This document shows positions 1 through 20,280 of a DNA stretch of 39,138 bases, piece by piece. The notes beneath the pieces were generated by a model that had not been told where the DNA came from, ran no database searches, and saw nothing but the letters and a program-made list of their open reading frames with translations. The position numbers were made by a program, and so were the translations under genes. The stretch is from a virus: UHGV virus genome UHGV-0198113, one strand, 5' to 3'. Every line of letters begins with the position of its first letter. Position 1 is the stretch's first letter.

Positions 1-3000
1 TGCCAGAACTGATCAGCAACGTTTTCATACGCGACGCGTGAAACGCTCTTATACCCCGCATAAGTTTCCTGGATTGGGATACCTGGCTTATATGCCAGCG
101 CAGAAAGTGAATTCCACTTCTGTGCATCAACATAACCAGAACCTTTTACCGTAGATGCCGCAGGAGCTTTCAACGGTTGGTTAACCAGCGTCTGTAGTGG
201 TCCTGTTTTTCGATCAAACGCCGCCGCTACGTCGTGTTGATCAACCACAGCGGCATGTTCTTCCAGTTCACGAACACGACCAAGACGTTTCACCTTATCG
301 ATATTGATATCAACGATACGTTTGCTGTCCGTTGTGACTGTTCCAACGAACAGCCGAGTCGCATTATCAGGAAGCTGCTCCAGACCTATCTGATACTGTG
401 CAGTTGAGCCTACAACTTCGCCGTGGACGTAGAAGGTTTGATTGGCGTGGTTAGATGGAAATTGATTACTTAAATCTACCGACCACGTTGGAAGCGTATA
501 ACTACTGCTACCAAAATCCAATTTAACTTCTTCCGTTAAATACAGAATCCAACCTTCCGCCGTTTCCACACCGGAAATAATGACCGCTTGACCGCCTGTT
601 GAGAATGTTGTGTCGTTAACAAACTCTGCGGCAGTGTACGCATTACCCGAGCAGAATACACGGTCAGCCTTGGAATAAATCAATGCCATCTTATCCCAAC
701 TGCCCGCGCCCATGTAACACCCGGATTCTGGGTTATGGGCAGGAGCCATCTGACGCAACTGAGACTTACCAGGAACACGAGTCCAACCCGACCCAGGGTC
801 GTAAGTATATTTCGCGGCGTAGCCTAATGCGTTCAAATCACCGATATTCCGAATCGTCAACGTATACGGTAACCAAATACCGAAGTTAACACCATCCGCA
901 GAAGCAAAGATAGGCTGACCCACACGTCGTGTTTTATTACCCGCTTCTTCATTCAAGGACTGATAACTTAAACCGTAGTCCTTATCTAAGAACCAGTCGA
1001 CCAGCTTAAAGGTTGCGGAGTTAAAACGTAGATAACCATTCTCTTTAGATGGGCTCACCATGAAGTAATAGATATCGAGAATACGACGCCCATTATCTAA
1101 GGTTTTCATGCACGAAACTTGTAATAAGTCAAACTCGCACACGGTGTTAATACCCAACATCCAAAGAGCAAATAACGCATTGCCTGTTTGGTGTGCTGCG
1201 CTAATACGTTCATTCGCATAGCCATTAGCTTCGCCTGACGGCGCACCATCGACAATCATTCGAATCATCTTCTGGCGATCAGCTTCTTCTAACGTCAAGC
1301 GTTCTGAAGACAACGCAAAATTACCGTAGATATTCCGGTATGGGAAAGTCTCTGCTTTTGTTAGATACCAACCGTTAAGTTGGCCGTGGCGCTCCTCTGG
1401 CGTCATACACGCAGCCATACAGCTCAACTGCTCGTAAAGTGTAGGATCAACCTCGCGACGGTTGTTATTTGGACCGTATCCGCTGTAACCAGGTACATTG
1501 TACGGCGTGTTCGGGTCAACCTCAACTTCGATTGTGTAACGGTTACGTGGATTAGACAACCAGACTTTGTTCGAGCCTCCAATACCGACAGGGTGAGAAA
1601 GACCGATGGTATAAATAGAACCGCGTCCTTTATCCCATGTAAAAGTCCCTTCACCTGAAGTATTGTTCGGGTTATCGTAACGCAGATAATCGAAAAGCTC
1701 TTTGCCTTGCGTTCCTTTAATAGAAACGTTCGGCATTTGGTCTGCGTCGTTAACTTGCCAGCAGGAAAGCATCATTCCCGTACCGTTAGGTTTTGCAAAC
1801 GTTGCAAAACAACGATTGTTTGCCTGACCACCACCCCACTTGCGACTAGTTTCTACAGTTGAACCGTCCGCGAACGAGAGTGTAGTAGCATCAGCCTTGA
1901 TGGGGAAGCGTTCGGCACCTTCTAACGTAACTTTGCCCGTCAACGTATCGATCGTAAAACTTGTTGCCCATTGACGAAAGTTAATTTGTGAGCCATCAGC
2001 CGCCGCAAACCATACCGTGGGCATATGGTTCACGCGGATCACGCTGTCACGCACCGCGCAAGCATGGTTGCATTCCGGCCCGTGAACAAAGTTATGTCCG
2101 TTAGTCCATTTAGCGCGTGCTTCTGGTGTAAAATACGTAAAGAACTGCCCAGACTGAGACTCCTCAGTTTTTTGACCGATTCGTAAACAGAGGTTATCTC
2201 CGTATTGACCCATTTCGCCTGTTAATGTTACGCGTTCAAATTCTAACGTGGTGCTGGTATACAAATCAGCTTTACGCAAACGCCAAGCCGCCACTGCATA
2301 AGCAGAGTTATTCACCGTAGAACGGAGAAGATAGACGTAATCATCAACCAGCACAACATCGTCGGCTTCTGGCCACGGATTCCAAGTTTGTTCAACGGTT
2401 CCGCTAGGGTTACCGTTACGATAGACAGGCATCGTCACACGACAAACCACGGTGTGTTTGGCGTGGTCCATCGAACCGTTAAACAGCACCAAATACCGGT
2501 TATTGTCGGAGCCCAGGCAAATGATCGCTTCCTGACCACCAATCAAAATCGCTTTTAAAGTTACACCAGGATACTTACTCAGTCCAACAGGATGGTATTT
2601 CACCGAGGTCTGTTGTGGATTTTCAAACGCATTTGACGAGTTGATATCCGCATAACCGTAATAAATAGCTTCTGTACCCGGCACGCCATTAGAAGCATTA
2701 CGTAGCGAGTAGACCTTCCCTTGCTGATAACCAACAACCCCTTTTTGGTAAGACTGGTTCTTTGTAAAGCCTGAATAGTTACCAAGTGCCGGAATTGGTA
2801 GAAAGTTTTTGTTACCAAACTTCGCACCACCTACGGTCCAAGCCGGTAAAATAGTGTTCAGTTTGTCAGTAACTTTCTTGATCTCTTTCGCAAATAACCA
2901 CCCTTGACGCGAAGTGACCGCTTTATCATTAGTAGTGTCTATAGCATCCCACAACTGTAATAAGCCGTCTACCGTCGCACTACCGATCGGTACATTATCC

Positions 3001-4472
3001 AAATCGCCAAACACGTGGGTGTGGTTAGACAATGCTTTGTTCTTTAAAACATTTGTCAGTGCTTTTGTTACTGGTTTGTTAGCCGGACTGGTATTGTCCA
3101 TTTTATCGATGCCGAAATCCGTTTTCGTTAACGTCAATACCATGTTCTCACCGGTCTTAACAAATCCTTTACCGTTAATGGTGTAATCATCATCGACGTA
3201 CAAGTCTAACCGGTCTTTTAATTCAGTAACGGCTTTTTGGGATATTGCTGTACCCAACGCAGCTGATGTTGCGATATTCGTAATAGAGAACAATCCGTAA
3301 ACCGACTCAGACGCCGTAGGGATATTTGCATTTAACGTCAATGGGTTGGATTGTTTCGATGTACCGTACGCTTTCACTGTGTCTGAAGACGAGAAGTACG
3401 CATTAGCTTCCAGCAACGTCACCGATGTTAAGTACATGTTCACCATGTCTGGTGTAACCAGATACACGGAGTTATACACTGGCGCTAAAACATCTTGCTC
3501 GGAGCCAGAGTGTACCCAAAGGGTGTTCAACCCAGCGCTGAACTCAACGGCTAAGCCTGATTCATTGTTGTCCTGGTCAGCTTTAATCACTAATGGTTGT
3601 GGTGACGTAATCAACCACTTATCATTTCGGATACTGATTACATGACCGCCTGCGGTTTTGAACGCCAGTTCTTTACCGTTTGAAGCACGCCAACGACCAT
3701 AAACCGTGCCGAGTGTACGGCCCATCAACTGGTCTACGTCCGACTGCTCAATTCCCGCAGAACCCATCAACGTTGCGAGTTCATCTAACGTTCTGTTGAA
3801 AGCTTTTGTCGCATCTACGGCACGCCCCAACACAGGCAGTGCACCAATGTCTTCAGTCGTGTAGTTGTGAACATTAGGGTTCAAATGGTGCTGATAAAGC
3901 TCTTCGTCAAAAACCTTCTTACCGTTTTCGTAAATCAGATTCGTAACTTCGCTAAAAGCAGCATCCAGTTCAGTGGAACGTTTGATAATCTTTTTACGAA
4001 TATCATCTAATGCTTTTACTACTTCGTCCCTGAGTAGGGCTTCTTCTAAGTTAGCAGGCGGGTCAATAGGCTGTATGACAGGAGCATACGCCATTAATTC
4101 GGACCAATCCACGTTACGCGGATCTTTTAAATCGGTACGAACTAGATACTTGCCAATTTCCGATTGTGGGATACGGTACTGGCGCGCTACACCCAGAATT
4201 TCGTATTCCACCTCAGTGGCAGTCAGTAACATGAACCCGCCGTAAATTTGGTCTTGTTCTGCCTCAGCGAGCTCTTTAAAGTAATAACCTAAATAGTAGT
4301 CCAGACCTTCTATTAAGGTACGACGGCCACCGGCGGCGGACTCGTCAGCAACAGTGAGCTTTAATCCGATACGATAAAAGGGGCCTTCCGGCGGGATGAC
4401 CACGTTAAATCGGTTAGGGTACGTTGACGTATTTAACGTACCGTTAAACAGCGCCGCGTCTTCTCTCGGCAT
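1..4472 (-). CDS. large tail-fibre/tailspike-like structural protein, partial (N-terminal ~1490 codons; C-terminus lies beyond window start)
   Basis: ATG at 4472-4470 preceded by AGGAG (MPREDAALFNG...). Frame spot-checked stop-free at the window start; the only minus-strand track ORFs in this span (1424-1654, 2600-2830) are in another frame. Absent from the ORF track because it has no stop in the window. N-terminus shares the PF(F/Y)...L.V...G.DY motif with the next two genes. Confidence 0.6.
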   Translation of the reverse strand, partial: MPREDAALFNGTLNTSTYPNRFNVVIPPEGPFYRIGLKLTVADESAAGGRRTLIEGLDYYLGYYFKELAEAEQDQIYGGFMLLTATEVEYEILGVARQYRIPQSEIGKYLVRTDLKDPRNVDWSELMAYAPVIQPIDPPANLEEALLRDEVVKALDDIRKKIIKRSTELDAAFSEVTNLIYENGKKVFDEELYQHHLNPNVHNYTTEDIGALPVLGRAVDATKAFNRTLDELATLMGSAGIEQSDVDQLMGRTLGTVYGRWRASNGKELAFKTAGGHVISIRNDKWLITSPQPLVIKADQDNNESGLAVEFSAGLNTLWVHSGSEQDVLAPVYNSVYLVTPDMVNMYLTSVTLLEANAYFSSSDTVKAYGTSKQSNPLTLNANIPTASESVYGLFSITNIATSAALGTAISQKAVTELKDRLDLYVDDDYTINGKGFVKTGENMVLTLTKTDFGIDKMDNTSPANKPVTKALTNVLKNKALSNHTHVFGDLDNVPIGSATVDGLLQLWDAIDTTNDKAVTSRQGWLFAKEIKKVTDKLNTILPAWTVGGAKFGNKNFLPIPALGNYSGFTKNQSYQKGVVGYQQGKVYSLRNASNGVPGTEAIYYGYADINSSNAFENPQQTSVKYHPVGLSKYPGVTLKAILIGGQEAIICLGSDNNRYLVLFNGSMDHAKHTVVCRVTMPVYRNGNPSGTVEQTWNPWPEADDVVLVDDYVYLLRSTVNNSAYAVAAWRLRKADLYTSTTLEFERVTLTGEMGQYGDNLCLRIGQKTEESQSGQFFTYFTPEARAKWTNGHNFVHGPECNHACAVRDSVIRVNHMPTVWFAAADGSQINFRQWATSFTIDTLTGKVTLEGAERFPIKADATTLSFADGSTVETSRKWGGGQANNRCFATFAKPNGTGMMLSCWQVNDADQMPNVSIKGTQGKELFDYLRYDNPNNTSGEGTFTWDKGRGSIYTIGLSHPVGIGGSNKVWLSNPRNRYTIEVEVDPNTPYNVPGYSGYGPNNNRREVDPTLYEQLSCMAACMTPEERHGQLNGWYLTKAETFPYRNIYGNFALSSERLTLEEADRQKMIRMIVDGAPSGEANGYANERISAAHQTGNALFALWMLGINTVCEFDLLQVSCMKTLDNGRRILDIYYFMVSPSKENGYLRFNSATFKLVDWFLDKDYGLSYQSLNEEAGNKTRRVGQPIFASADGVNFGIWLPYTLTIRNIGDLNALGYAAKYTYDPGSGWTRVPGKSQLRQMAPAHNPESGCYMGAGSWDKMALIYSKADRVFCSGNAYTAAEFVNDTTFSTGGQAVIISGVETAEGWILYLTEEVKLDFGSSSYTLPTWSVDLSNQFPSNHANQTFYVHGEVVGSTAQYQIGLEQLPDNATRLFVGTVTTDSKRIVDINIDKVKRLGRVRELEEHAAVVDQHDVAAAFDRKTGPLQTLVNQPLKAPAASTVKGSGYVDAQKWNSLSALAYKPGIPIQETYAGYKSVSRVAYENVADQFW

Positions 4473-4504
4473 CGTAAAGACTCCTACTTTTAAATAAAAT
4501 GGAT

Positions 4505-4530
4505 ACCCCTCCCTTTTTACAGGGAGGGGT
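4505..4530 (-). terminator. stem-loop (10-bp stem ACCCCTCCCT/AGGGAGGGGT) between two minus-strand giant genes; terminator or attenuator
   Basis: Perfect inverted repeat with 6-nt loop; T-rich tract follows on the minus strand (complement of 4480-4504). Confidence 0.4.
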
Positions 4531-4567
4531 TACCTACGGACACATTACTGCCCGCAGGCAGTCTGTC

Positions 4568-7500
4568 CTAAGTGCGATCCCCTAACTGTTTACCGTTAAG
4601 TTCACGTTTCAGTACAGCTAAAATCCATTTCCACGCTTTGCTCGTGATATGGTACGGATTACGCTTTGTTATCATCACTTGTTCATCGCCGGAACGAACT
4701 TCAAAACTTTGCACGTTCAGTTGATCTTGACGAGTATTGGTTTCATCAAAGATTTCTAAATTGCAGCTGAAGTTCAACTCATACCCCTCTGGGTTGTCGC
4801 CCGGCAACTCAAGGACGATATAAAGGTCTTGGCCTGCCCGTAGATCCACGGGAGTTAAGCTTATTGCTTTACCCACATCAGAAGATGTCGACAAAGCAAA
4901 TTCGACGATGTCAGTTGCAGATAAGAAAGCATCTTTCTGTGCATCACCGATAATCACTTTCCCTGGCCAGTTGCTTTTAATCGTTCCCGACACACGCGCG
5001 ATGCGATAATGTGCTTTACTAACGCCCTGTGCGAATCGCAAGATCAAATTTCCACGATGTTTATCTGATGCAGGCGACGTGGTACTCCACGCGTTATTCC
5101 ACGTAGAGTTCTGAGAAACCAAAGCACCGCGAGCTAACTTACGATCGTAGAACTGCGCAGGTAGTTGACCTTCATGCGACAAAGAAGCAACACCTTGTCC
5201 CAGAGGTAAACCTATTGCTTCGGTAAAACGGAACTCAGATTTAATCTCGTACGATGCGGGGTCTATTGCGGTCTGGGCATAATCGGCATCACGAGCATCC
5301 GAAAGCTGACCGATAGAACTATCTACGTACGATTCAAACAAGCCACGCAAGTAATGATACTTATCAATGTCAATATTAGATGTAACCGGGTCTATTAAAC
5401 CATGGCTAATCGTCAAACGACACTTCTCGCTGAGTTCACTAAACGCCAGCCCAACGCCATCGCCAGCAAAATAATCTACCAAATCAAACGGAAGTTGGAA
5501 CTCTACTTGGCGTTGTTTAACCGCTGTTGTGTTAAACTGCGAGAAAGAAAGTGCTAATCGTAAGACACGAGTTTGAACATTATAACGGTAACGTATCATT
5601 CCCCTTGGGGCGTGAACAGGAGAAATCTTATCCTTGCTTACACCCCAACCTAAAAGGTCAAGAATTGCTGGATTAGTTTCATCGCCATTAAATAACACGT
5701 CTTTGGTAGTTGCAGAAACAGCGGTCTCATTTGCTGTTTCCATCAACATCACCCCATCGTTTGTTTCAAACGTTTTGTACCACGTCTCATTAGTACGCAC
5801 CGTACCAACACCCACTTTGCAGGTCTTATCCGTAAGATTAAAACGAACGTATCGACGTCCTACAGAACTACCTTGTGAACTAGCACAGAGTATAAGATCT
5901 GGAGCTGCTGTGAGTGCTTTTGTCCCGCCAACATCATCAACATCAAAAACAAACGACCCTTCGAATGTGGGGGCACTATTTTCTTTAGGGTTGAATGGTG
6001 TAAACCAACAATACGGCGTTGCACCTTCGGTCGAGAAAATTAGCTGTAAAGCAGTTTTAACATTTAGCCCATGCGAATAAGTAAGCAAACCGCGACTCAA
6101 GCTTACAGCAGTCCCGCCACTTCCCGCCGTTAGCATCTTACGATAAACCAACGCACGTGGTTCGGGAATAGCGCGGTTCAATAACGGTAATCTGGGGTTA
6201 TCTGTCAGCGACCAGTCGACCACTTTTAACCCGTGGGCGTTTCGCGTGGTCACATGGTTGCCAATTTCTGCACTTGTACCAAAGTCGAAAGTGGTGTCGA
6301 AAGTTACCGTCTTATTCGCGTAATTTTCGCCTGCGTAAACATCTACGTATCCGATAAAACCGCGCTCAGGATCAACCTGGTTTGATTCGATCGGCTCAGC
6401 ACGAGAATACAGAGAACCTGTGAGCATGTTAACGTAAAGATAATGACGAATCCCAACATGTGTTGTGACGAAATCGGCTAACAACTCTACGTGTGTTTCG
6501 GGACCACTGAAATATACAGGGTAATCACCGTCATATATCTCAAACTGCACCGCAGCTGATTTTGCCGTGTCGCTACATTCCGCTTTTATTGCAACAACAT
6601 AGTTCTCGACGTTTGGTGAAGTTTCGTAAACAGTTAATAATGGCGATTCACCGGAGGCAACTTGCACACCGTTAATGTACACGGTTACGGGGCCACCACC
6701 GGCAGCATAAACCCATAGCTTAGACTGGTACGCTTTGACCCGAGCTTTAGCAAGAACAGTAATTACAGACTGATCACCCATTTGTGTTGCTGTCTTTCCA
6801 ACAGGCACAGAGTGATAGCCCATTAACGGTGGTTCATCAATACCGTCCCAAGTAATTCCTGTTCCTTTGCTAACTTTTGCTTCCGGCCAGGTAGTTTCAA
6901 GCTGGTTATTTGGCGAAAACCAGTTGAACATTGGCGTTGTCTGAAGATCAATTGCACCGGTCAGGGTAGCTTCGTCTTTGTTACCATCAAACAAATAAAA
7001 GACTTTCAGATCCTGTACGGTTAAAGCAGTACCTTGACTATTAAACCGCCACTGCGCACCTTGTACCGCAGCAAAATCTGTTACCGTACCTTCTTTCGCA
7101 TTTGCAATCGCTGCGGCAACAACTTCAAGCCTTGCAGAAAGTTCTTTGAGAATATTAGGCACTACAGCCCGTCCCTCGACTAAGCCATTTTGGTTAGTCG
7201 CATAACGACCTATACCGTAAATGGATTGAGAAGCCTTATAAATGCCTAATTCTGACCACTCGTGATGGTGGTTCTTTTCCGCAAGTCCTTCAACTGCCGT
7301 ACTTAGAGCCGAGGACAGCGGTTTATCAACATCGGCGGTATTGTCAGCATGTTCCAATCCTAACTCTGCTTTGGTAATCTGGCGAGAACCGTCGTTCATC
7401 GCCTTACCGTTTAGCAGCGTCGTTTTCGGCACATACCCGGACAAGTCCGTTGAGTACGGTGTCAGTGACCCCGGTGTTGCTGCAACGCCCGTTGTTTCCG

Positions 7501-8758
7501 TTCCTTTACCGGTTTTCAGTTTAGCGACGCCTTTTTCAGTCAGAGTCGCTTTTTGAGGGTCGATAACCCCTACGATAGGGTCAGCGCGTGAACCTTTACC
7601 CGTAAAGCTAATTCCGTTGCGACCCTCGATATACACTTTAGTGTCATCAGGGTCATTACCACCTGTCCCTTCGTCAGGGTCTTGTTGGTATTCCATTAGT
7701 GCAGTCGTTGTAAGCAACGGGTTGCCGTTTAAGGTGAGTTTATTCATCCCTAAGGCATCGCCTGTTGATTCAATACGCAACGTGTTCTTACCTGCACGCC
7801 ACTGTATGTAACGACCCGCACCTGTTCCTTCCAAGTGCCCGACCGCCAACACAACTGAACCGTTTGACTTCAACGTAAAACCATCGTTCGCAAAAATGAT
7901 TTCAGATTCACCATTTTTAGAACTGAATTGTGCACGGTTTCCTGACACCGTACAGTTGAAATTCCCATAGACCTCATCAGAAATCCAATGAGAAATATAG
8001 GTGTCAACTACCGATTGTGGTAAACGGAATGCTTTTAGTTCTTCCGTTAACGCTTTCAGACGTAAACCGTAAGCCATAAAGGTATCCGGCGTTTTGAGAT
8101 TCACCGGATGAGCTTCGATTTGTGCTACGGTTGTTTCATGAGGATTCTTTGCCGCGATATGTGCTGGGTAATTAAATGCTTGAATTTCTTTACCCAGAGC
8201 AACAACGAGTGCTTTAACCTCGGCCAGTTTATCTTTAATCAGTTGGTTTGCATCATCGGTTTTTAATTCGATATCATGAACCGCAGACGCAAGATATTTT
8301 TTATTCAGCAAATCTGCCCAAGACGTTGCAGCAGGTGTTGCTGGATAAAGCGACGGACGACCTTCTAATAACAACCAATCCGCACTAGTCGGGTTATTGA
8401 GATGTTTTACAAGCTCATCCAGAATTTCTACAAACGGATCGTAAAACGTTCCACCGAGCATTTGTCCTTCAAAAGTAACTAAACCTTTGATGGATGGGTT
8501 GATAAGGTGTACCCCACAATACACGTTGGCTGCTACCGAGTCATCCAGTTCCGTCAGCTGATATTGCAGTTCGTAATCTACCCCACGGCTCAGTGGGGTA
8601 GTTGAACCCGGCTGCTTAACGACCAGATTTTCAAAGAACGGGCGATGATCCAAAATCACCACCCGATCGTTGTTGTTTTCTGACCCGATGATACGCTCCT
8701 CTAAGAAGTGATTCTCGGCTTTCGTCCCCCGAGGATCGTAAGGATACGCTTTCATCAA
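4568..8758 (-). CDS. giant structural protein (1396 aa), tail-fibre/tailspike-like
   Basis: Track ORF; AAGGAGA RBS 8 nt upstream inside the end of the preceding gene; N-terminal 'HRPFFENLVVKQPG...GVDYELQY' motif shared with neighbours; Gly/Thr/Asn-rich composition typical of fibres. Confidence 0.8.
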   Translation of the reverse strand: MMKAYPYDPRGTKAENHFLEERIIGSENNNDRVVILDHRPFFENLVVKQPGSTTPLSRGVDYELQYQLTELDDSVAANVYCGVHLINPSIKGLVTFEGQMLGGTFYDPFVEILDELVKHLNNPTSADWLLLEGRPSLYPATPAATSWADLLNKKYLASAVHDIELKTDDANQLIKDKLAEVKALVVALGKEIQAFNYPAHIAAKNPHETTVAQIEAHPVNLKTPDTFMAYGLRLKALTEELKAFRLPQSVVDTYISHWISDEVYGNFNCTVSGNRAQFSSKNGESEIIFANDGFTLKSNGSVVLAVGHLEGTGAGRYIQWRAGKNTLRIESTGDALGMNKLTLNGNPLLTTTALMEYQQDPDEGTGGNDPDDTKVYIEGRNGISFTGKGSRADPIVGVIDPQKATLTEKGVAKLKTGKGTETTGVAATPGSLTPYSTDLSGYVPKTTLLNGKAMNDGSRQITKAELGLEHADNTADVDKPLSSALSTAVEGLAEKNHHHEWSELGIYKASQSIYGIGRYATNQNGLVEGRAVVPNILKELSARLEVVAAAIANAKEGTVTDFAAVQGAQWRFNSQGTALTVQDLKVFYLFDGNKDEATLTGAIDLQTTPMFNWFSPNNQLETTWPEAKVSKGTGITWDGIDEPPLMGYHSVPVGKTATQMGDQSVITVLAKARVKAYQSKLWVYAAGGGPVTVYINGVQVASGESPLLTVYETSPNVENYVVAIKAECSDTAKSAAVQFEIYDGDYPVYFSGPETHVELLADFVTTHVGIRHYLYVNMLTGSLYSRAEPIESNQVDPERGFIGYVDVYAGENYANKTVTFDTTFDFGTSAEIGNHVTTRNAHGLKVVDWSLTDNPRLPLLNRAIPEPRALVYRKMLTAGSGGTAVSLSRGLLTYSHGLNVKTALQLIFSTEGATPYCWFTPFNPKENSAPTFEGSFVFDVDDVGGTKALTAAPDLILCASSQGSSVGRRYVRFNLTDKTCKVGVGTVRTNETWYKTFETNDGVMLMETANETAVSATTKDVLFNGDETNPAILDLLGWGVSKDKISPVHAPRGMIRYRYNVQTRVLRLALSFSQFNTTAVKQRQVEFQLPFDLVDYFAGDGVGLAFSELSEKCRLTISHGLIDPVTSNIDIDKYHYLRGLFESYVDSSIGQLSDARDADYAQTAIDPASYEIKSEFRFTEAIGLPLGQGVASLSHEGQLPAQFYDRKLARGALVSQNSTWNNAWSTTSPASDKHRGNLILRFAQGVSKAHYRIARVSGTIKSNWPGKVIIGDAQKDAFLSATDIVEFALSTSSDVGKAISLTPVDLRAGQDLYIVLELPGDNPEGYELNFSCNLEIFDETNTRQDQLNVQSFEVRSGDEQVMITKRNPYHITSKAWKWILAVLKRELNGKQLGDRT

Positions 8759-8768
8759 AAAATTCTCC

Positions 8769-11700
8769 TTAATCGCGAATAATCACCGCGTTGAGTTTAT
8801 TGTTTTCACCCAAGAACGACATGACACGCTCCTTGTTCAGATAAGGAGGGATCGGTAACGCGTTATAATCGGCTAAATTATCATCAAACTCTTTTGCTAC
8901 CAGCGCGTTTAGCGTCTCAGGATCTGAGCTTGGGCCAGCTGTCTCAATGAGGCGTGCGCGGTTTAATGCAGAATAGTTAGCGATATAATCCAATAGCGTT
9001 CCGTACGATTTATTTGCTGTTATGCTATCAGCAGTGGTACGGAGGTTGGCGCGTACCTCGTCGTCATAAAGTCCCCCTAAACCGTAATAGATAGGGGTAT
9101 AAGGATCGTTAACAATGGGTGAAATATCTAACTCACCTAGACGATCAGTTAACGAAATTTTCTGAGTTGTTCCGCCCGCTGCGGTGCAGCTTACGTATTT
9201 ATCTACATCTGACAAATACACAACGATGGTATAAACCGTTCCTGCTAGTGTTAACGTCGCATTAAACGTCACATCGTTGTTCGCGCCGCGTCTGTGGGTA
9301 AATGTGATATCGGGTTGTAATGTACTCCAAGGGGCAGGTGTAACACGCTTCGTTGGTGTAAAACCAAGAACAACCGATTTCCCATTAGCGAAGTTTAACC
9401 CGAAACCTGCGTAACAATATTCGCCCTTACTGTCAGTTAAGCGGTAGCCCCTTGTCACTAAAAGAGACAAGCGAACAAACTCATTGGCATTATTCCGCCA
9501 ACAACCTAAAATCGTTTCAAGCACTGTGCCCGTTTTTGCGTTACTCTCCGTTTCCCAAGTTACACGAACACCTGCGTTCGAGAACAGCGGGAAAAGATTG
9601 TGAATAAATCCATGAACATTATCACTAACTCCCTTTGGATCAAATATCCACTTCGAAGCTAAGGAATCGTATTTTACGCCGTCGAGTGCTTTATACGTAT
9701 TCCCCATCGCAAATCGCCAATCAGCCTCACCACGTGTTACTGCTTGTAAGCCTGAAGCCCAGCAGGGCGCACCCACTGTTAAATTGCGCAAACCTAGAGC
9801 TGCACGTGGCGCACTTCTCTGAATATGCGCATTGTCGTTAGCAATATGTTCTGACAATTCCCGGAAATCACCTAAACGGGTCACGTTACGCAACTCGGTT
9901 AAGTACACTTCTGAGATATCGTTGACGCCAATCATCCCCACACGGGTCATGGTATCCGTTTCGGCTTGACTGTAACTATCGTGAATAACATAAGTCGCCC
10001 GGTTATCGACAATATCAACAAACACCCCAGCAACAATTTCCGTATTCAGTTTTGGAAAGCGCTCAGCAGTGTTTACTGTCATTAACGGCACTTGATACGT
10101 TTCCCCACCAATGAAATACGTTGTGGCGGGTAACGTAACCAGTATCTTGTCTTTTACCGTAACTTCGATTAAGTCGTTCCCAGTTTCACCGTAACGGATG
10201 ATGTCAATTCGGGCACCCGAATCTACGTTACCTACTGTTGCTTCCAGCTTCTCAATTCGAGCTGTCTGATCCATCACCACACTAGCGTCTAAAGCCAGCG
10301 TTGCATCATCGACGGCTAATCCGAATTTAATTAACCCGCGTTTATCCGTTGTTGCGTTTTCCACTCCAAACGCTGTTGACGGGTGGCGGTGAACCTTCGG
10401 TGAATATTTATCCAACTCTGTTTGTTGTGCAACAGAAATAGGTAAATCGACGTCAGGTGTGTTTGCAACGTTACCTAGGTTAAAGGTGATTTTGTCGATG
10501 GTAATAGAGCTGGTTAACGGCATGTCGTTAATGTACGATTTTACCGCGACCAATTTACCCGTAAACTCAGCATCGAGTTTTGTAATCAACGCAGGCGTCG
10601 CTGCCAGATTTTCCGCAGTACCGAACTCATCGGTTAACTGCCATCCGGCTAAGGACGTCGTATCCGTTGCGGTAGGGAGGACAAACGTTGCCACAAACGG
10701 TGACGCTTTTATTCCGTTACCTGTAATGGTTACCGTTGCTGTCGAGTTTGCGTAGAATAATCCTGTTCCACCCGCGGTATTACCTGGTAGGTAAGGCCCT
10801 ACTGTGGTGGGGTCTAAAAGTTTCTTACCACGCCACTGCAAGCCACGATCGTCAGCGTACAATACCAGCTGATTAGTCCCTGCCTGGAAAGTTACGGGGT
10901 TATTCCCTGCATTAACTTCGGTTGAACCTTGGCCAATAAACTTAATGGATTTCGGGTCAACGGCAAACTGAGCACCTAAACGGGTCTCGTCAACAACATC
11001 CGGCGCTTTCTTAATGGTAACCGTGTTACCTTTGTTTTGCGAGATAATGCTGACACTATCAGCAACGTTGTTAATCAACGTTTTAAAGTGATGTTGGTTC
11101 TCTAACGCTTCTAGCGCAGCATCCATGTTAACGAAGTTGACACGAGCGCTGTACGTCTTACCATTCACGGTAACAACGATATCAAATACGTTCCCCGTAC
11201 GTTTTAATTGGAAACGTAACGTAAAATCATCGTCAGGTATTGCAGGATCGGCGATTTGAGAAACATATTGGACTTCCGGCTGCGGATTAGCATAACCGTT
11301 CAGTTGTAAACCGATACTGACTCGACCTGACAGAACTTCACCGGTAAGTTGAATGAATTTGCCAGAGTTACTACCAGGATTTTCATAGAAGCGTAAACCA
11401 ACCATACCGACTGCTTCATTACCTGACGCTGTTTTACGTCCGGTGACAATGAAGTCAATATCTTGCAGGTTGGCAGGTACTCCATTAAAATAAGTACCAA
11501 ATCCATTCTTCGTTCCCGTATAACGAAGTGCGCCATGATACGTGTAACCATTGCTAACATAGCTTTCGCTAAAATAAGGGTTCACGTACTTAGACATCGA
11601 CACCGGATCAACTTCCGTCGTAAAGGACGTAAAGCCTGGCAGTGTTCTGATAGTTCCGTCAACCGTTTTGTTAGCTGCGGTGCGTAGCAGTTTATTCTGC

Positions 11701-13091
11701 GCTGTCAGTGTTGCCTGCGTCGGGTATTTACTGTTAACGTAATCCGTTAACTGTTGTTTCGTTTTCCCGTAAGCCAAAGCAGCATCTGACGCGATACCGT
11801 TTAACTCTAACGCACGAATCGGTCCCCACGTATCGACGTGTGGGTTATCTTTACGGGTAACGTGCTCGTGAGCTGGTGCGTTGCGGTAAAGCTGTTCCAC
11901 CAACTGATGGTATTTGACAATCAGCTGATAAACGTCATTGCTTACGTCGGCGTCTGGCGCACCAGGTAACGCAAGGAATTGTGCATAATCGTTTTCAGCC
12001 GCCCACCAGTTTAGATTAACGTTGGTTTTATATTTCAACCATTTCGCAACATCTGTTTTGCTATAACCTGCTGAGAATTCGGATGGTGGGTTATCAACGT
12101 TGAACGTGTAGTCCATCGTCTGTTTGTTAGTCGTCACCTCGATAACATACACACCGTTACCAGGCTGACGAACAACACTAAACGTTAACTCACCTTTCAA
12201 TTCGCTGTCGGTCAGTCCGTTGATTAGCGTATAGTCGTAATCGGTTGAGCCGCTTCCTAACGCTACGGTCAGGCGCAAAGAGATTTTACGCTGCTTTAAT
12301 TGAAGACGAAGGATACTTGCACCGCCATTCGCGTAGCACAACATCCAATCGATTTGTTCATTTGGGTTAATGCTTCCCATGTTCGGGAAAATACCAGGAA
12401 TACGGTATTTCATCGACAGGGAGTAGTCATTTAACGTCGTGGTTTTGTACGTAACGGCAAAACGGCGTTTTGTAGTGTTGTACGTATAACCGCCTTTGTT
12501 ATCGTACGTTGCATACTGTTCTGACGTGATAACCGTGCCGTTAGCACGATGCTCAATATCTAACGTGTTACGTGCAATCGGGTCTAACCGATTTACAACG
12601 TTACCTAAGGAGTCGCCTAAGCCTGCGATGGCTTGCATTAACTCCAGTTCACCTTTCCAGTTTTCCCAATCGAACTGAATGTCAACGGGTGGAAAGTAAA
12701 CGTCCCCGATAACGGTGTCCCATTGACACGTAGACGGGTATTTATCTTTATTTAACTCACGCTCTGCGCTAATCTGCTGCTGTGTGGCTTCACCACAACC
12801 AACGGCATGATAATCCACAGTAAAATTCGACTTGTATTTGTCGTTAACAATCCAAATCATCCCGTGAATGAGATAGGCTGTGCGCAACATACCTGTCTCG
12901 TACGGGTGTGTAATTACGTAATCGTCGCCTAAGGTCAGTGTTTTGCCGCCGCTCTTGACCACCAGGGACGTGGTGAAAAAAGGGGCGTGGGCAGGTACCA
13001 ACATTCGGTACTTCGTACCAATGACGGCGACCGCTTCACCGGTTATTTTATTCCCCGGTTCTTTGAAGTGTGGGTCTAGGACGACAGCCAT
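8769..13091 (-). CDS. giant structural protein (1440 aa), tail-fibre/tailspike-like
   Basis: Track ORF; AGGAG RBS; N-terminal 'HAPFFTTSLVVKSGG...GDDYVITH' motif; stops 10 nt before the next gene starts (operon). Confidence 0.8.
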   Translation of the reverse strand: MAVVLDPHFKEPGNKITGEAVAVIGTKYRMLVPAHAPFFTTSLVVKSGGKTLTLGDDYVITHPYETGMLRTAYLIHGMIWIVNDKYKSNFTVDYHAVGCGEATQQQISAERELNKDKYPSTCQWDTVIGDVYFPPVDIQFDWENWKGELELMQAIAGLGDSLGNVVNRLDPIARNTLDIEHRANGTVITSEQYATYDNKGGYTYNTTKRRFAVTYKTTTLNDYSLSMKYRIPGIFPNMGSINPNEQIDWMLCYANGGASILRLQLKQRKISLRLTVALGSGSTDYDYTLINGLTDSELKGELTFSVVRQPGNGVYVIEVTTNKQTMDYTFNVDNPPSEFSAGYSKTDVAKWLKYKTNVNLNWWAAENDYAQFLALPGAPDADVSNDVYQLIVKYHQLVEQLYRNAPAHEHVTRKDNPHVDTWGPIRALELNGIASDAALAYGKTKQQLTDYVNSKYPTQATLTAQNKLLRTAANKTVDGTIRTLPGFTSFTTEVDPVSMSKYVNPYFSESYVSNGYTYHGALRYTGTKNGFGTYFNGVPANLQDIDFIVTGRKTASGNEAVGMVGLRFYENPGSNSGKFIQLTGEVLSGRVSIGLQLNGYANPQPEVQYVSQIADPAIPDDDFTLRFQLKRTGNVFDIVVTVNGKTYSARVNFVNMDAALEALENQHHFKTLINNVADSVSIISQNKGNTVTIKKAPDVVDETRLGAQFAVDPKSIKFIGQGSTEVNAGNNPVTFQAGTNQLVLYADDRGLQWRGKKLLDPTTVGPYLPGNTAGGTGLFYANSTATVTITGNGIKASPFVATFVLPTATDTTSLAGWQLTDEFGTAENLAATPALITKLDAEFTGKLVAVKSYINDMPLTSSITIDKITFNLGNVANTPDVDLPISVAQQTELDKYSPKVHRHPSTAFGVENATTDKRGLIKFGLAVDDATLALDASVVMDQTARIEKLEATVGNVDSGARIDIIRYGETGNDLIEVTVKDKILVTLPATTYFIGGETYQVPLMTVNTAERFPKLNTEIVAGVFVDIVDNRATYVIHDSYSQAETDTMTRVGMIGVNDISEVYLTELRNVTRLGDFRELSEHIANDNAHIQRSAPRAALGLRNLTVGAPCWASGLQAVTRGEADWRFAMGNTYKALDGVKYDSLASKWIFDPKGVSDNVHGFIHNLFPLFSNAGVRVTWETESNAKTGTVLETILGCWRNNANEFVRLSLLVTRGYRLTDSKGEYCYAGFGLNFANGKSVVLGFTPTKRVTPAPWSTLQPDITFTHRRGANNDVTFNATLTLAGTVYTIVVYLSDVDKYVSCTAAGGTTQKISLTDRLGELDISPIVNDPYTPIYYGLGGLYDDEVRANLRTTADSITANKSYGTLLDYIANYSALNRARLIETAGPSSDPETLNALVAKEFDDNLADYNALPIPPYLNKERVMSFLGENNKLNAVIIRD

Positions 13092-13158
13092 TATCTACTC
13101 CTATAATCCGTGGGCGTCGAGTTCATACTATGACTTGAATCTATAGAGGAAAAGAGCT

Positions 13159-14421
13159 GTGACTACTGCTTATCAAGTGCGGCCCGACAGCGCTTTTGGC
13201 TTCTCTCGAGAGTCCCGTACCTGGGGAGCCATCGATGTCACGCAACCTTTAGCTACACTGTGTTCGGATTACCACACCTTTGAGGTCGGCCTGAGTGCGC
13301 TTGGTAAAGACTATACGTTAGTCAGCCAGTATCACCTTGCTGAATTACAAAACCGAACCGATACTTTACAAGACTGGTTGAATGAAAAAGCCGGTGTGGT
13401 TATTCCTACCTTAAAAGCAGGATTACCGAAACTGGAATTCAGCTGGGCGCATTACCAATCGATTAACGCAGACGTACCCGTTGAGTCTTACCTGTGCCCT
13501 GCGGGTTATCATTACAGTCAGGATTTCAGTCTGGATGATGCGACAGATGTGGTGATAGTCTGTGAAGACAAATGGAAAGACAAATACCGTAACGGGGTGC
13601 TATACAACATCAACGGGCAATGGGTGCCGCATCAATCTGATTCTGTTGGTGTACGATTACCTGGTGCTGGGAATATCGTTAGACGTGCAGGTACACCAGA
13701 TATCGGTTGCATGGTTTTTGATGCGCTCGGTGCGGTGAAAACATACCCGATTGCTAATCTTACCTTAAACAAACTCGACACCACGCGCGATTACTATTCA
13801 ACGTTAATGATTTCGTTGCCCGAATCCATAACCGGTAAAACCGTAGGGTTCGTTATTGGTGGGATGTTACGTTGGCTGCCTGCGAACGGTTATTTCTCCG
13901 ATCGTGCGATTATGATTTCTTTACCGAATTTCGATCTTGCGCGCACGGTGTTAGAAACACGGCGTTACTACGATTGGGATGCTATCGGTGTAGGGGATTT
14001 ATCTTCACCTGCTAACGTTCAACGAATTCGCAACCCAGAAACATTAAAAGCGCTCTTACTTCACGAATCTTCGTTTATTTTTACGGTGGATAATCCGTAT
14101 TTAGAAGAAGAGATTGTGGGCGTATCGCATAACGCGATTTGGGGACGTTGTTATCTCAAAGACCCTAACGATCCTGATTCTGAAAAACCGTTAGGCTATT
14201 TAAATAACCGATTCGGAAAGACGGTAGGTTATTGGCCTACGTGGGAAGAAGGTGAGTGGGTATTTAACACCACCGAGTTCGACAGTCAAAACTACGTATT
14301 TCGTGAAGCTCGCTGGTATAACCAGAAGAAGATTAACGATGCGCAAGCGATAGTCGGGCCCTTCGGCCCCTGGGAAAAAGTGTATTTAGAAATGCATCGT
14401 TTTCGTGCACGAAAAAAATAA
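13159..14421 (+). CDS. hypothetical protein (420 aa), GTG start
   Basis: Track ORF; GAGGA RBS upstream of GTG; followed by a strong terminator. No motif recognised. Confidence 0.6.
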   Translation: MTTAYQVRPDSAFGFSRESRTWGAIDVTQPLATLCSDYHTFEVGLSALGKDYTLVSQYHLAELQNRTDTLQDWLNEKAGVVIPTLKAGLPKLEFSWAHYQSINADVPVESYLCPAGYHYSQDFSLDDATDVVIVCEDKWKDKYRNGVLYNINGQWVPHQSDSVGVRLPGAGNIVRRAGTPDIGCMVFDALGAVKTYPIANLTLNKLDTTRDYYSTLMISLPESITGKTVGFVIGGMLRWLPANGYFSDRAIMISLPNFDLARTVLETRRYYDWDAIGVGDLSSPANVQRIRNPETLKALLLHESSFIFTVDNPYLEEEIVGVSHNAIWGRCYLKDPNDPDSEKPLGYLNNRFGKTVGYWPTWEEGEWVFNTTEFDSQNYVFREARWYNQKKINDAQAIVGPFGPWEKVYLEMHRFRARKK

Positions 14422-14427
14422 AGTAAC

Positions 14428-14470
14428 CTCCTACCCTCTTAGAGGGTAGGAGTAGCACGTTTTTTTTTTC
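14428..14470. terminator. bidirectional rho-independent terminator
   Basis: 11-bp perfect stem CTCCTACCCTC/GAGGGTAGGAG with TTA loop (14428-14452), T11 run on plus (14460-14470) and T-rich tract on minus; sits between convergent genes. Confidence 0.75.
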
Positions 14471-14472
14471 GC

Positions 14473-14682
14473 TTAGTCTTTTTTGTAGACGATCGCGTTG
14501 CCGTGCAGTTTGTTGTTACCAGAGATACCGATAACTTTAAATGCGTCACCACCGATTTTCTCGGCTTCAGCAGCCAGTTTACCGGTTACGTGGTCAACGG
14601 TATCACCAAAGGCACTAACGTTACCAATTTTCTTAAACTCTTCTGGGATATGCTCAGCAGAAGAGAACTCTTTAATAGACAT
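14473..14682 (-). CDS. DUF1471 (BhsA/YdgH/McbA-like) small protein, no signal peptide
   Basis: Track ORF; GGAGAG RBS; 'KIGNVSA...AEKIGGDAFKVIGISGNNKLHGNAIVYKK' matches the BhsA-family core as I recall it; in-frame stop 11 codons upstream rules out an N-terminal extension. Confidence 0.65.
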   Translation of the reverse strand: MSIKEFSSAEHIPEEFKKIGNVSAFGDTVDHVTGKLAAEAEKIGGDAFKVIGISGNNKLHGNAIVYKKD

Positions 14683-20157: not shown

Positions 20158-20188
20158 GTGGGAGCATTGCTCCCACTTTCTTTTTTGT
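20158..20188 (+). terminator. rho-independent terminator closing the paralog operon
   Basis: 8-bp stem GTGGGAGC/GCTCCCAC with 3-nt loop, followed by TTTCTTTTTT. Confidence 0.7.
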
Positions 20189-20207
20189 TCAGTACGATTA
20201 GAAATAA

Positions 20208-20232
20208 TTTCAGATATATATTACTTAGGTGA
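20208..20232 (+). promoter_or_regulatory. conserved 25-nt motif TTTCAGATATATATTACTTAGGTGA (copy 2)
   Basis: Identical to copy 1 except for one A/T; lies between a terminator and the secreted-protein cassette, about 48 nt upstream of the ATG at 20281. Confidence 0.4.
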
Positions 20233-20280
20233 GAGTTACGATTAACTCTTTTAACCTGTTAACCTTTAAGGAGTATTTCA

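Follow-up and report, generated by a model that had tools for sequence, protein, structure and literature searches.

Three giant genes and a divergent neighbour

We analysed a 39,138-nt stretch of the virus genome UHGV-0198113, referred to below as the window; all coordinates refer to its full length. Positions 1 to 13091 hold three consecutive minus-strand genes, here called A, B and C, and C stands back to back with a plus-strand gene, D. A sequence-only reading of this DNA had described A, B and C as three tandem giant fibre-like genes sharing an N-terminal anchor. Their coordinates and lengths were given correctly there, and the N-terminal motifs that it quoted lie at residues 29 and 56 of A, 38 and 59 of B, and 35 and 55 of C. 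The genes are the following.

3 to 4472, minus strand: gene A, gp168-like giant baseplate-fibre paralog; 1490 aa in the window, start at 4472
4568 to 8758, minus strand: gene B, gp169-like giant baseplate-fibre paralog; 1396 aa with a TTG start
8769 to 13091, minus strand: gene C, gp170-like giant baseplate-fibre paralog; 1440 aa
13159 to 14421, plus strand: gene D, homologue of phiKZ gp130 and SPN3US gp171, divergent from C

By sequence comparison, A, B and C are members of an already described family, the baseplate-fibre paralogs gp131, gp133, gp134 and gp135 of phage phiKZ, for which Sycheva et al. 2012 is reportedly the source. The C-terminus of A is cut off by the start of the window and about 237 aa are missing, the orthologues (as on the L010 contig) being 1727 aa long. 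Gene B probably starts at the ATG at 8755, which gives a protein of 1395 aa, rather than at the mechanically called TTG at 8758, since all orthologues begin at this ATG (MKAYPYD...), one codon after the TTG. Only 10 nt separate B from C, and A follows downstream of B after 95 nt.

A common N-terminal domain of the phiKZ gp131 family

The three proteins begin with a related domain, which in B is followed by predicted helices. The evidence for each is given in brackets.

3978 to 4472, minus strand: residues 1-165 of A, gp131-like N-terminal docking domain (phrog_2163, hidden Markov models (HMMs), alignments with the phiKZ paralogs)
8309 to 8758, minus strand: residues 1-150 of B, gp131-like N-terminal docking domain (gp133-derived HMM, phrog_2163, AlphaFold2 (AF2) model)
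12642 to 13091, minus strand: residues 1-150 of C, gp131-like N-terminal docking domain (gp133-derived HMM, phrog_2163)
8177 to 8320, minus strand: residues ~147-194 of B, predicted helices (AF2, H147-166 and H172-194; predicted local distance difference test (pLDDT) only 54-70)

Identity among the three N-domains is only 16-24%, and pairwise BLAST of the N-termini gave weak values (E = 0.054 for B against C, E = 0.59 for A against C). Profiles were far more sensitive. The N-termini of A (3e-43), B (9e-28) and C (1e-14) match identical positions of phrog_2163, the match spanning residues 4-215 of B and 4-129 of C. An HMM made from the N-terminal 170 aa of 44 phiKZ gp133 orthologues, which contains no window sequence, also scored at all three N-termini (B 1.4e-14, C 8e-11, A 1.1e-3). 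In the window's 138 other stop-to-stop segments this HMM found no further member, the next best having E = 0.74. A second HMM, from the family alignment, likewise recovered the N-domain of A, and alignments with phiKZ gp131, gp133, gp134 and gp135 show conserved F, DY and W columns. A protein homologue search with the 150-aa N-domain alignment returned only two short phiKZ gp134 fragments. Because both phrog_2163 and the independent gp133 HMM find all three proteins, the N-terminal similarity proposed from the letters alone is confirmed as homology, significant by profiles though weak by pairwise BLAST.

An AF2 model of residues 1-235 of B, built from a 22-sequence alignment (pLDDT 62), shows a small beta-sandwich (residues 17-101, pLDDT 60-89) and then helices. 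By analogy, the helices at ~147-194 may be the counterpart of the helical bundle at the base of the phiKZ fibres.

What such domains do can be seen in phiKZ. The phiKZ cryo-electron microscopy (cryo-EM) atlas has 12 fibre sites beneath gp130, with fibres running downwards (PMC13250141). Each site contains six gp131-like N-domains and a six-helix bundle, assigned to three copies of gp131 and one each of gp133, gp134 and gp135, and the phiKZ model also has a gp131 homotrimer (PMC13250141). gp131 was localised to the baseplate periphery (PMC5105663), and immunogold labelling and cryo-EM place the phiKZ proteins at the periphery or fibres of the virion baseplate (PMC13250141). Transposon insertion sequencing (TnSeq) of phiKZ gave zero insertions in any of gp131-135, which are hence essential (PMC12676376).

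The gp130 counterpart in the window is gene D, which matches phiKZ gp130 over its full length (BLASTP E = 4e-13) and phrog_3337 (8e-144). Its SPN3US orthologue, gp171, is an essential tail protein (PMC5105663). By analogy with phiKZ, D is presumed to be the docking platform for the fibre N-domains. The idea of a common anchor was right, since the phiKZ N-domains dock beneath gp130, whose homologue D adjoins C.

The two lineages have in common a homologous N-domain of ~150 aa, after which come a predicted helix and an NPH motif, and a tandem array of four N-domain genes (one of them beyond the window) that is divergent from the gp130 homologue. They differ in that the phiKZ N-domains are only 13-26% identical to those of the window, and in protein size. 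phiKZ has a medium-length protein of 771 aa and three short proteins of ~460 aa each; the window lineage has three giant proteins (1237-1727 aa) and one short protein (400 aa).

Orthologues in SPN3US-like phages and the source lineage

At the DNA level the window has only short matches of 72-86% to Erwinia and Salmonella jumbo phages. The proteins gave much clearer results. A matches phrog_7449 with E = 0 across residues 1-1490, and by tblastn over its full length it shares 53% identity with SPN3US gp168 and 60% with its orthologue in Asesino. B matches phrog_8078 (E = 0) and is 40-46% identical to SPN3US gp169 by tblastn, with 40-50% across SPN3US-like and Erwinia phages. C matches phrog_7557 (E = 0) and is 53% identical to SPN3US gp170, in two pieces. 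The tblastn matches to gp168, gp169 and gp170 cover 90-100% of each protein and lie at syntenic positions. The genes stand in the same order in SPN3US, Asesino, phiEaH2, pEa_SNUABM_29 and the L009 and L010 contigs, and in an analogous one in phiKZ. Judged by identity and synteny, A, B and C are one-to-one orthologues of SPN3US gp168, gp169 and gp170, the "paralog family C".

This family has been published as "Paralog family C", with similarity to phiKZ gp131 (Ali et al. 2017, PMC5694885; Thomas et al. 2016, PMC5105663). Mass spectrometry detected SPN3US gp168, gp169 and gp170 (188, 149 and 135 kDa) at low abundance in virions (PMC5694885), and a tailless mutant lacks them (PMC5694885, PMC5105663). 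Their authors labelled them "baseplate/tail fiber candidate" (PMC5694885), and gp168 is "expected essential" (PMC5105663). The spectral-count values (SC/M) of gp167 to gp171 are 1.90, 1.08, 1.41, 1.00 and 0.74, with 0.93-1.29 for the 12-copy portal (PMC5694885, Suppl. Table 1). The homology to SPN3US gp168-170 and to phiKZ gp131 thus supports the earlier proposal of a common N-terminal anchor on virion proteins of the baseplate fibre type.

The window resembles SPN3US in gene order and strand, in the divergent gp171-like neighbour, and in a small DUF1471 gene and a baseplate-assembly gene. It differs in its protein identity of ~50% with almost no DNA-level similarity, and in C, which is ~200 residues longer than gp170 because of an insertion at ~497-702. 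In addition, SPN3US is cultured, while the source lineage of the window is not among the cultured GenBank phages. The exact C protein is present on the European Nucleotide Archive (ENA) metagenome scaffold ERZ28629076. The closest relatives of B, a 98% identical protein (P0003) and then proteins of ~80-81% identity, are "hypothetical proteins" on 222-227-kb contigs. These contigs come from isolate assemblies of Salmonella enterica (many serovars) and E. coli, and are not cultured phage records. A genus 'Bapsvirus' has been proposed for bacterial-assembly-associated jumbo phages of ~220-249 kb that are syntenic with Seoulvirus at low nucleotide identity (PMC12768965). The window comes from a phiKZ-related (Chimalliviridae) jumbo myophage near the SPN3US/Erskinevirus group, most likely of the 'Bapsvirus' lineage, whose description the contigs of these relatives fit.

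A fourth, short paralog beyond the window

In the relatives, a gene of ~400 aa lies directly downstream of A, just beyond window position 1. An HMM scan of the related loci found the N-domain in it with E = 1e-13 to 8e-21. The copies identified by these N-domain HMMs are the following.

SPN3US: gp167, at 9287-10489 of locus L001
Asesino: gp187
phiEaH2: gp089
contig L010: 19501-20700

This fourth paralog is nearest to phiKZ gp135 (E = 6e-13) and has a long coiled coil after the N-domain. SPN3US gp167 is a virion protein annotated as "virion structural protein" (SC/M 1.90), and it is not listed in family C (PMC5694885). Counting the fourth paralog, four N-domain genes therefore stand beside a gp130-like gene in both the SPN3US-like and the phiKZ lineages.

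A common shaft, divergent distal parts and an insertion in C

Beyond the N-domain, A, B and C had been said to diverge. This holds only in part: A and B are homologous over ~500 aa (BLASTP E = 1e-20), a shaft module of ~200-250 aa is common to all three (A ~300-560, B ~310-560, C ~703-965), and A and C have one more domain in common in their distal parts. The shaft was recovered by BLASTP between B383-562 and C787-964 (E = 5e-10) and between A308-512 and C723-928 (E = 0.005). It contains an HxH motif in each protein (A483, B496, C900). The modules and regions outside the N-domain are listed below.

2793 to 3575, minus strand: residues ~300-560 of A, shaft module with HxH at 483 (BLASTP against B and C; PHROGs)
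10197 to 10985, minus strand: residues ~703-965 of C, shaft module with HxH at 900 (BLASTP; insert-free alignment)
201 to 623, minus strand: residues ~1284-1424 of A, distal domain common with C (BLASTP, phrog_7557)
4571 to 7078, minus strand: residues 561-1396 of B, divergent beta-rich distal region, presumed host-binding part
10986 to 11603, minus strand: residues ~497-702 of C, lineage-specific inserted domain of ~205 aa (alignment gaps in relatives)

Within the shaft, A399-516 matches phrog_35419 and phrog_2126, annotated "tail fiber protein", and C733-960 matches phrog_7449 and phrog_8078. The distal domain of A (~100-140 aa) has its counterpart at C ~961-1099, window ~9795-10211 on the minus strand. 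The two were aligned over A1320-1413 and C994-1089 (BLASTP E = 7.7e-5), and the A domain also matches positions 741-879 of phrog_7557, the family of C. This domain is a local conservation peak (69%) amid otherwise variable distal regions, and it could be a trimerisation or interaction module.

We measured conservation as identity to four orthologues in 50-residue windows. Identity is 70-84% in the N-domains (A 70-83%, C 71-84%), 60-70% in the shaft and 13-50% in the distal regions. Variation is greatest at B ~950-1050, B ~1200-1350 and C 150-400. Because the conservation gradient points to them, these stretches, together with C 497-702, are probably the variable, host-contacting parts.

The insertion in C is a 100% gap in SPN3US, Asesino, phiEaH2 and pEa_SNUABM_29, and it is kept in the 1441-aa orthologue of L009 and L010, ~224-kb contigs from Salmonella assemblies. 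A tblastn search of 50,697 phage records found nothing like it, and BLAST detected no internal duplication as its source. Among 1.84 billion representative proteins, it matched only its own cluster and, weakly and in part, three others (1.4e-6 to 1.9e-4). In one of these, the bacterial multi-domain protein P0170, the matched stretch overlaps a concanavalin A-like (ConA-like) GH43_C2 domain. A second bacterial multi-domain protein, P0169, has the same domain families, DUF1349 and GH43_C2, the overlap being shown for P0170, and the third match, P0171, had no ConA-like match. The insertion is possibly a ConA-like jelly roll, going by these distant matches.

The sequence-only reading had suggested looking for a depolymerase beta-helix or an intramolecular chaperone in the C-terminal domains. 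Neither a pectate-lyase type beta-helix nor a Peptidase_S74 chaperone was found in Pfam or NCBIfam, the C-terminus of A being outside the window; there was no match of any kind for whole A, B and C or for distal fragments, even at E <= 10. An AF2 model of the distal part of B, of low confidence, has beta-sandwiches and no beta-helix. PDB sequence searches with the single proteins and two profiles, in a copy without the phiKZ fibre N-domains, gave no relevant match; the sole match was a generic fibre repeat, 'W..i..kP..fpP..H', in the 9d93 collar fibres.

A C-terminal seven-bladed beta-propeller like the solved one of gp131 was considered for A and rejected. BLASTP against gp131 351-771 gave E = 0.023 over 66 residues only, hhalign of the A orthologue profile gave a probability of 0.08%, and a profile search of PDB sequences returned no gp131 chain. 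Despite this failed detection, A could still hold a propeller of low sequence similarity.

How the fibres may assemble

We consider it likely that A, B and C are SPN3US-like fibres of the gp131 family, docked under a gp130-like protein and co-assembled in a hetero-oligomeric base. Each protein has a gp131-like N-domain of ~150 residues with a predicted beta structure, a predicted helical segment, a shaft of ~250 residues with the HxH and tail-fibre motifs, and a distal part. The distal part is large, beta-rich and fast-evolving, presumably touching the cell surface, with extra globular insertions in C. By analogy with phiKZ, the N-domains would dock beneath the gp130-like D at the outer baseplate, and the N-domains and helices of different paralogs, including the short fourth one, would form one hetero-oligomeric fibre base. 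A, B and C would then be obligate partners in a composite fibre apparatus and not interchangeable fibres. Following the phiKZ arrangement, they probably come together at common sites and are less likely to work as separate, alternative fibres.

Several points weigh against this reading. Virion location, stoichiometry and receptor binding of the window proteins are all carried over by homology. The phiKZ fibre base itself consists of AlphaFold models docked in a 4.4-4.6 A map (PMC13250141), and its hetero-hexamer assignment is provisional because of docking at ~4.5 A. The three short phiKZ paralogs are alike in length, whereas the long ones here differ by up to ~330 residues, so that co-assembly in register is not obvious given these differences and the large insertions in C. 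The SPN3US spectral counts (1.0-1.9) do not separate stoichiometries. The seven-bladed propeller of gp131 was not detectable in A by BLASTP, hhalign or PDB profile search. Finally, with pLDDT values of 62 and 51 the two AF2 models reach low or moderate confidence, which makes statements on the fold weak.

We regard a more novel assembly of the same proteins as rather unlikely. Here A, B and C, instead of making three homotrimers, would align in register through N-domain, helix and shaft to make one heterotrimeric giant fibre per site, alongside a trimer of the short paralog, and the inserts of C would be glycan-binding modules. Such a heterotrimer with a short trimer would be what phiKZ has, in mirror image. 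If so, the side-mounted glycan modules of C, including the near-orphan ConA-like insertion, would tune host recognition in a Salmonella-associated lineage.

It is unlikely, in our judgement, that A, B and C are instead independent fibres, each a homotrimer attached to equivalent baseplate sites through its N-domain, binding different receptors and giving a broad host range. In favour of it, the paralogs have unrelated, fast-evolving distal parts, each protein has its own HxH and fibre-type motifs, and SPN3US gp168-170 are roughly equally abundant. In phiKZ, the 12 docking sites leave room for more than one fibre type (PMC13250141), and the model includes the gp131 homotrimer. However, the N-domains of four different paralogs are assigned to each phiKZ site (PMC13250141). 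The phiKZ paralogs are all essential on one host and SPN3US gp168 is "expected essential", which would be unexpected of redundant fibres. The three-gene set with its fourth short gene is also strictly conserved in number and order across the relatives examined, while swappable receptor-binding cassettes would be expected to vary.

The sequence-only reading had gone on from separate fibres to a broad or switchable host range. This step does not fit phiKZ, where the paralogs share one docking site and are all essential (PMC13250141, PMC12676376). In positions 1 to 14500 we looked for invertase sites, for long repeats in direct or inverted orientation and for template/variable pairs of the kind found in diversity-generating retroelements (DGR-like), and found only short chance repeats. 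The paralogs A, B and C are without DNA-level similarity to each other, and the number and order of paralogs do not vary among the relatives examined. Nothing in the sequence supports host-range switching.

Less probable still is a mainly architectural role, in which the proteins would be outer-baseplate struts or the periphery of the 'star lobe' and would not bind the host themselves. The SPN3US authors went no further than 'baseplate/tail fiber candidate' (PMC5694885), gp131 lies at the baseplate periphery (PMC5105663), and no recognised receptor-binding or depolymerase domain was found in Pfam or NCBIfam. Against such a role, conservation falls off strongly from N- to C-terminus and C has its lineage-specific insertion, both typical of proteins that contact the host; the shaft has matches among the PHROGs of tail fibres, and the distal regions have lectin or ConA-like hints. 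In phiKZ, the density has fibres running down from the N-domain sites (PMC13250141).

The resemblance of the N-terminal motif to T7 gp17-type fibres, suggested in the sequence-only reading, found no significant sequence or profile support. Pfam PF03906 had no match at E <= 10 in the N-terminal 200 aa of A, B, C or phiKZ gp131, gp133, gp134 and gp135, while T7 gp17 itself, as a positive control, scored 2.6e-74. Aligning the family alignment to T7 gp17 1-160 with hhalign gave a probability of 0.13% (E = 0.45), and a 29-sequence family profile against an eight-sequence T7-like profile gave 0.58% (E = 0.1) over 23 columns. Foldseek of the N-domain model (pLDDT only 62) against the PDB returned nothing below E = 0.64. 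That the segment is a PF03906 attachment domain, making these proteins distant relatives of podovirus fibre adaptors, is very improbable on these results, even though the 23 columns of the best profile-profile alignment coincide with the motif named in that reading (family positions 43-65, T7 30-53). The likeness is one of motif, any relationship of fold being weak at best and unproven; A, B and C do not belong to the T7 family. Both systems have a conserved N-terminal adaptor, variable distal receptor-binding parts and a superficial strand-turn-'DY' motif, but T7 gp17 docks on the podovirus gp11/gp12 adaptor-nozzle and the fibres here would dock at the outer baseplate under gp130. The N-terminus of CBA120 TSP4, the adaptor of a branched multi-tailspike system, showed no similarity in sequence, the model being too weak for a claim on the fold. 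The CBA120 tailspikes hang on each other in a branched arrangement, without a base of six N-domains and six helices.

Other features of the window

A strong hairpin lies in the 95-nt gap between B and A.

4505 to 4530, minus strand: hairpin of 10 bp with 7 G-C pairs (consensus scan only)

It may be a terminator, an attenuator or an RNA-stability element, and may mark a boundary of transcription or RNA stability within the fibre operon.

Between the gp130-like gene D and the baseplate-assembly gene lies an open reading frame of 69 aa (14473-14682, minus strand) that is DUF1471 or BhsA-YdgH-like (NCBIfam BhsA 3.4e-12, below the curated cut-off). Its SPN3US orthologue, gp172 (7 kDa), is a virion protein (PMC5694885, Suppl. 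Table 1). An enterobacterial periplasmic stress-protein fold is a curious find within a phage baseplate module.

The intergenic stretch 20158-20250 (plus strand) has 88-89% DNA identity in SPN3US-like phages, with unconserved flanks. It contains a G+C hairpin and a T-run (terminator-like), followed by an AT-rich TATATATTAC element that we take to resemble the phiKZ early-promoter consensus. The phiKZ early-promoter-like octamer TATATTAC was considered and rejected, as it is not enriched in the window (2 found, 1.5 expected). There were no tRNA genes or Rfam families in the window.

Meaning for chimallivirus host recognition

The family itself was already known and nothing is overturned; what is new here is the fourth paralog, the insertion in C and the domain map. 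Three giant genes that were "hypothetical", together with their neighbour, can now be named as gp131-family baseplate-fibre proteins and a gp130-like docking protein. Host recognition by chimalliviruses is poorly understood: the phiKZ fibres are docked only at ~4.5 A, and fibres are reportedly not resolved in the Goslar map. The domain map, the fourth paralog and the insertion in C offer concrete hypotheses for SPN3US genetics and for host-range engineering of Salmonella jumbo phages.

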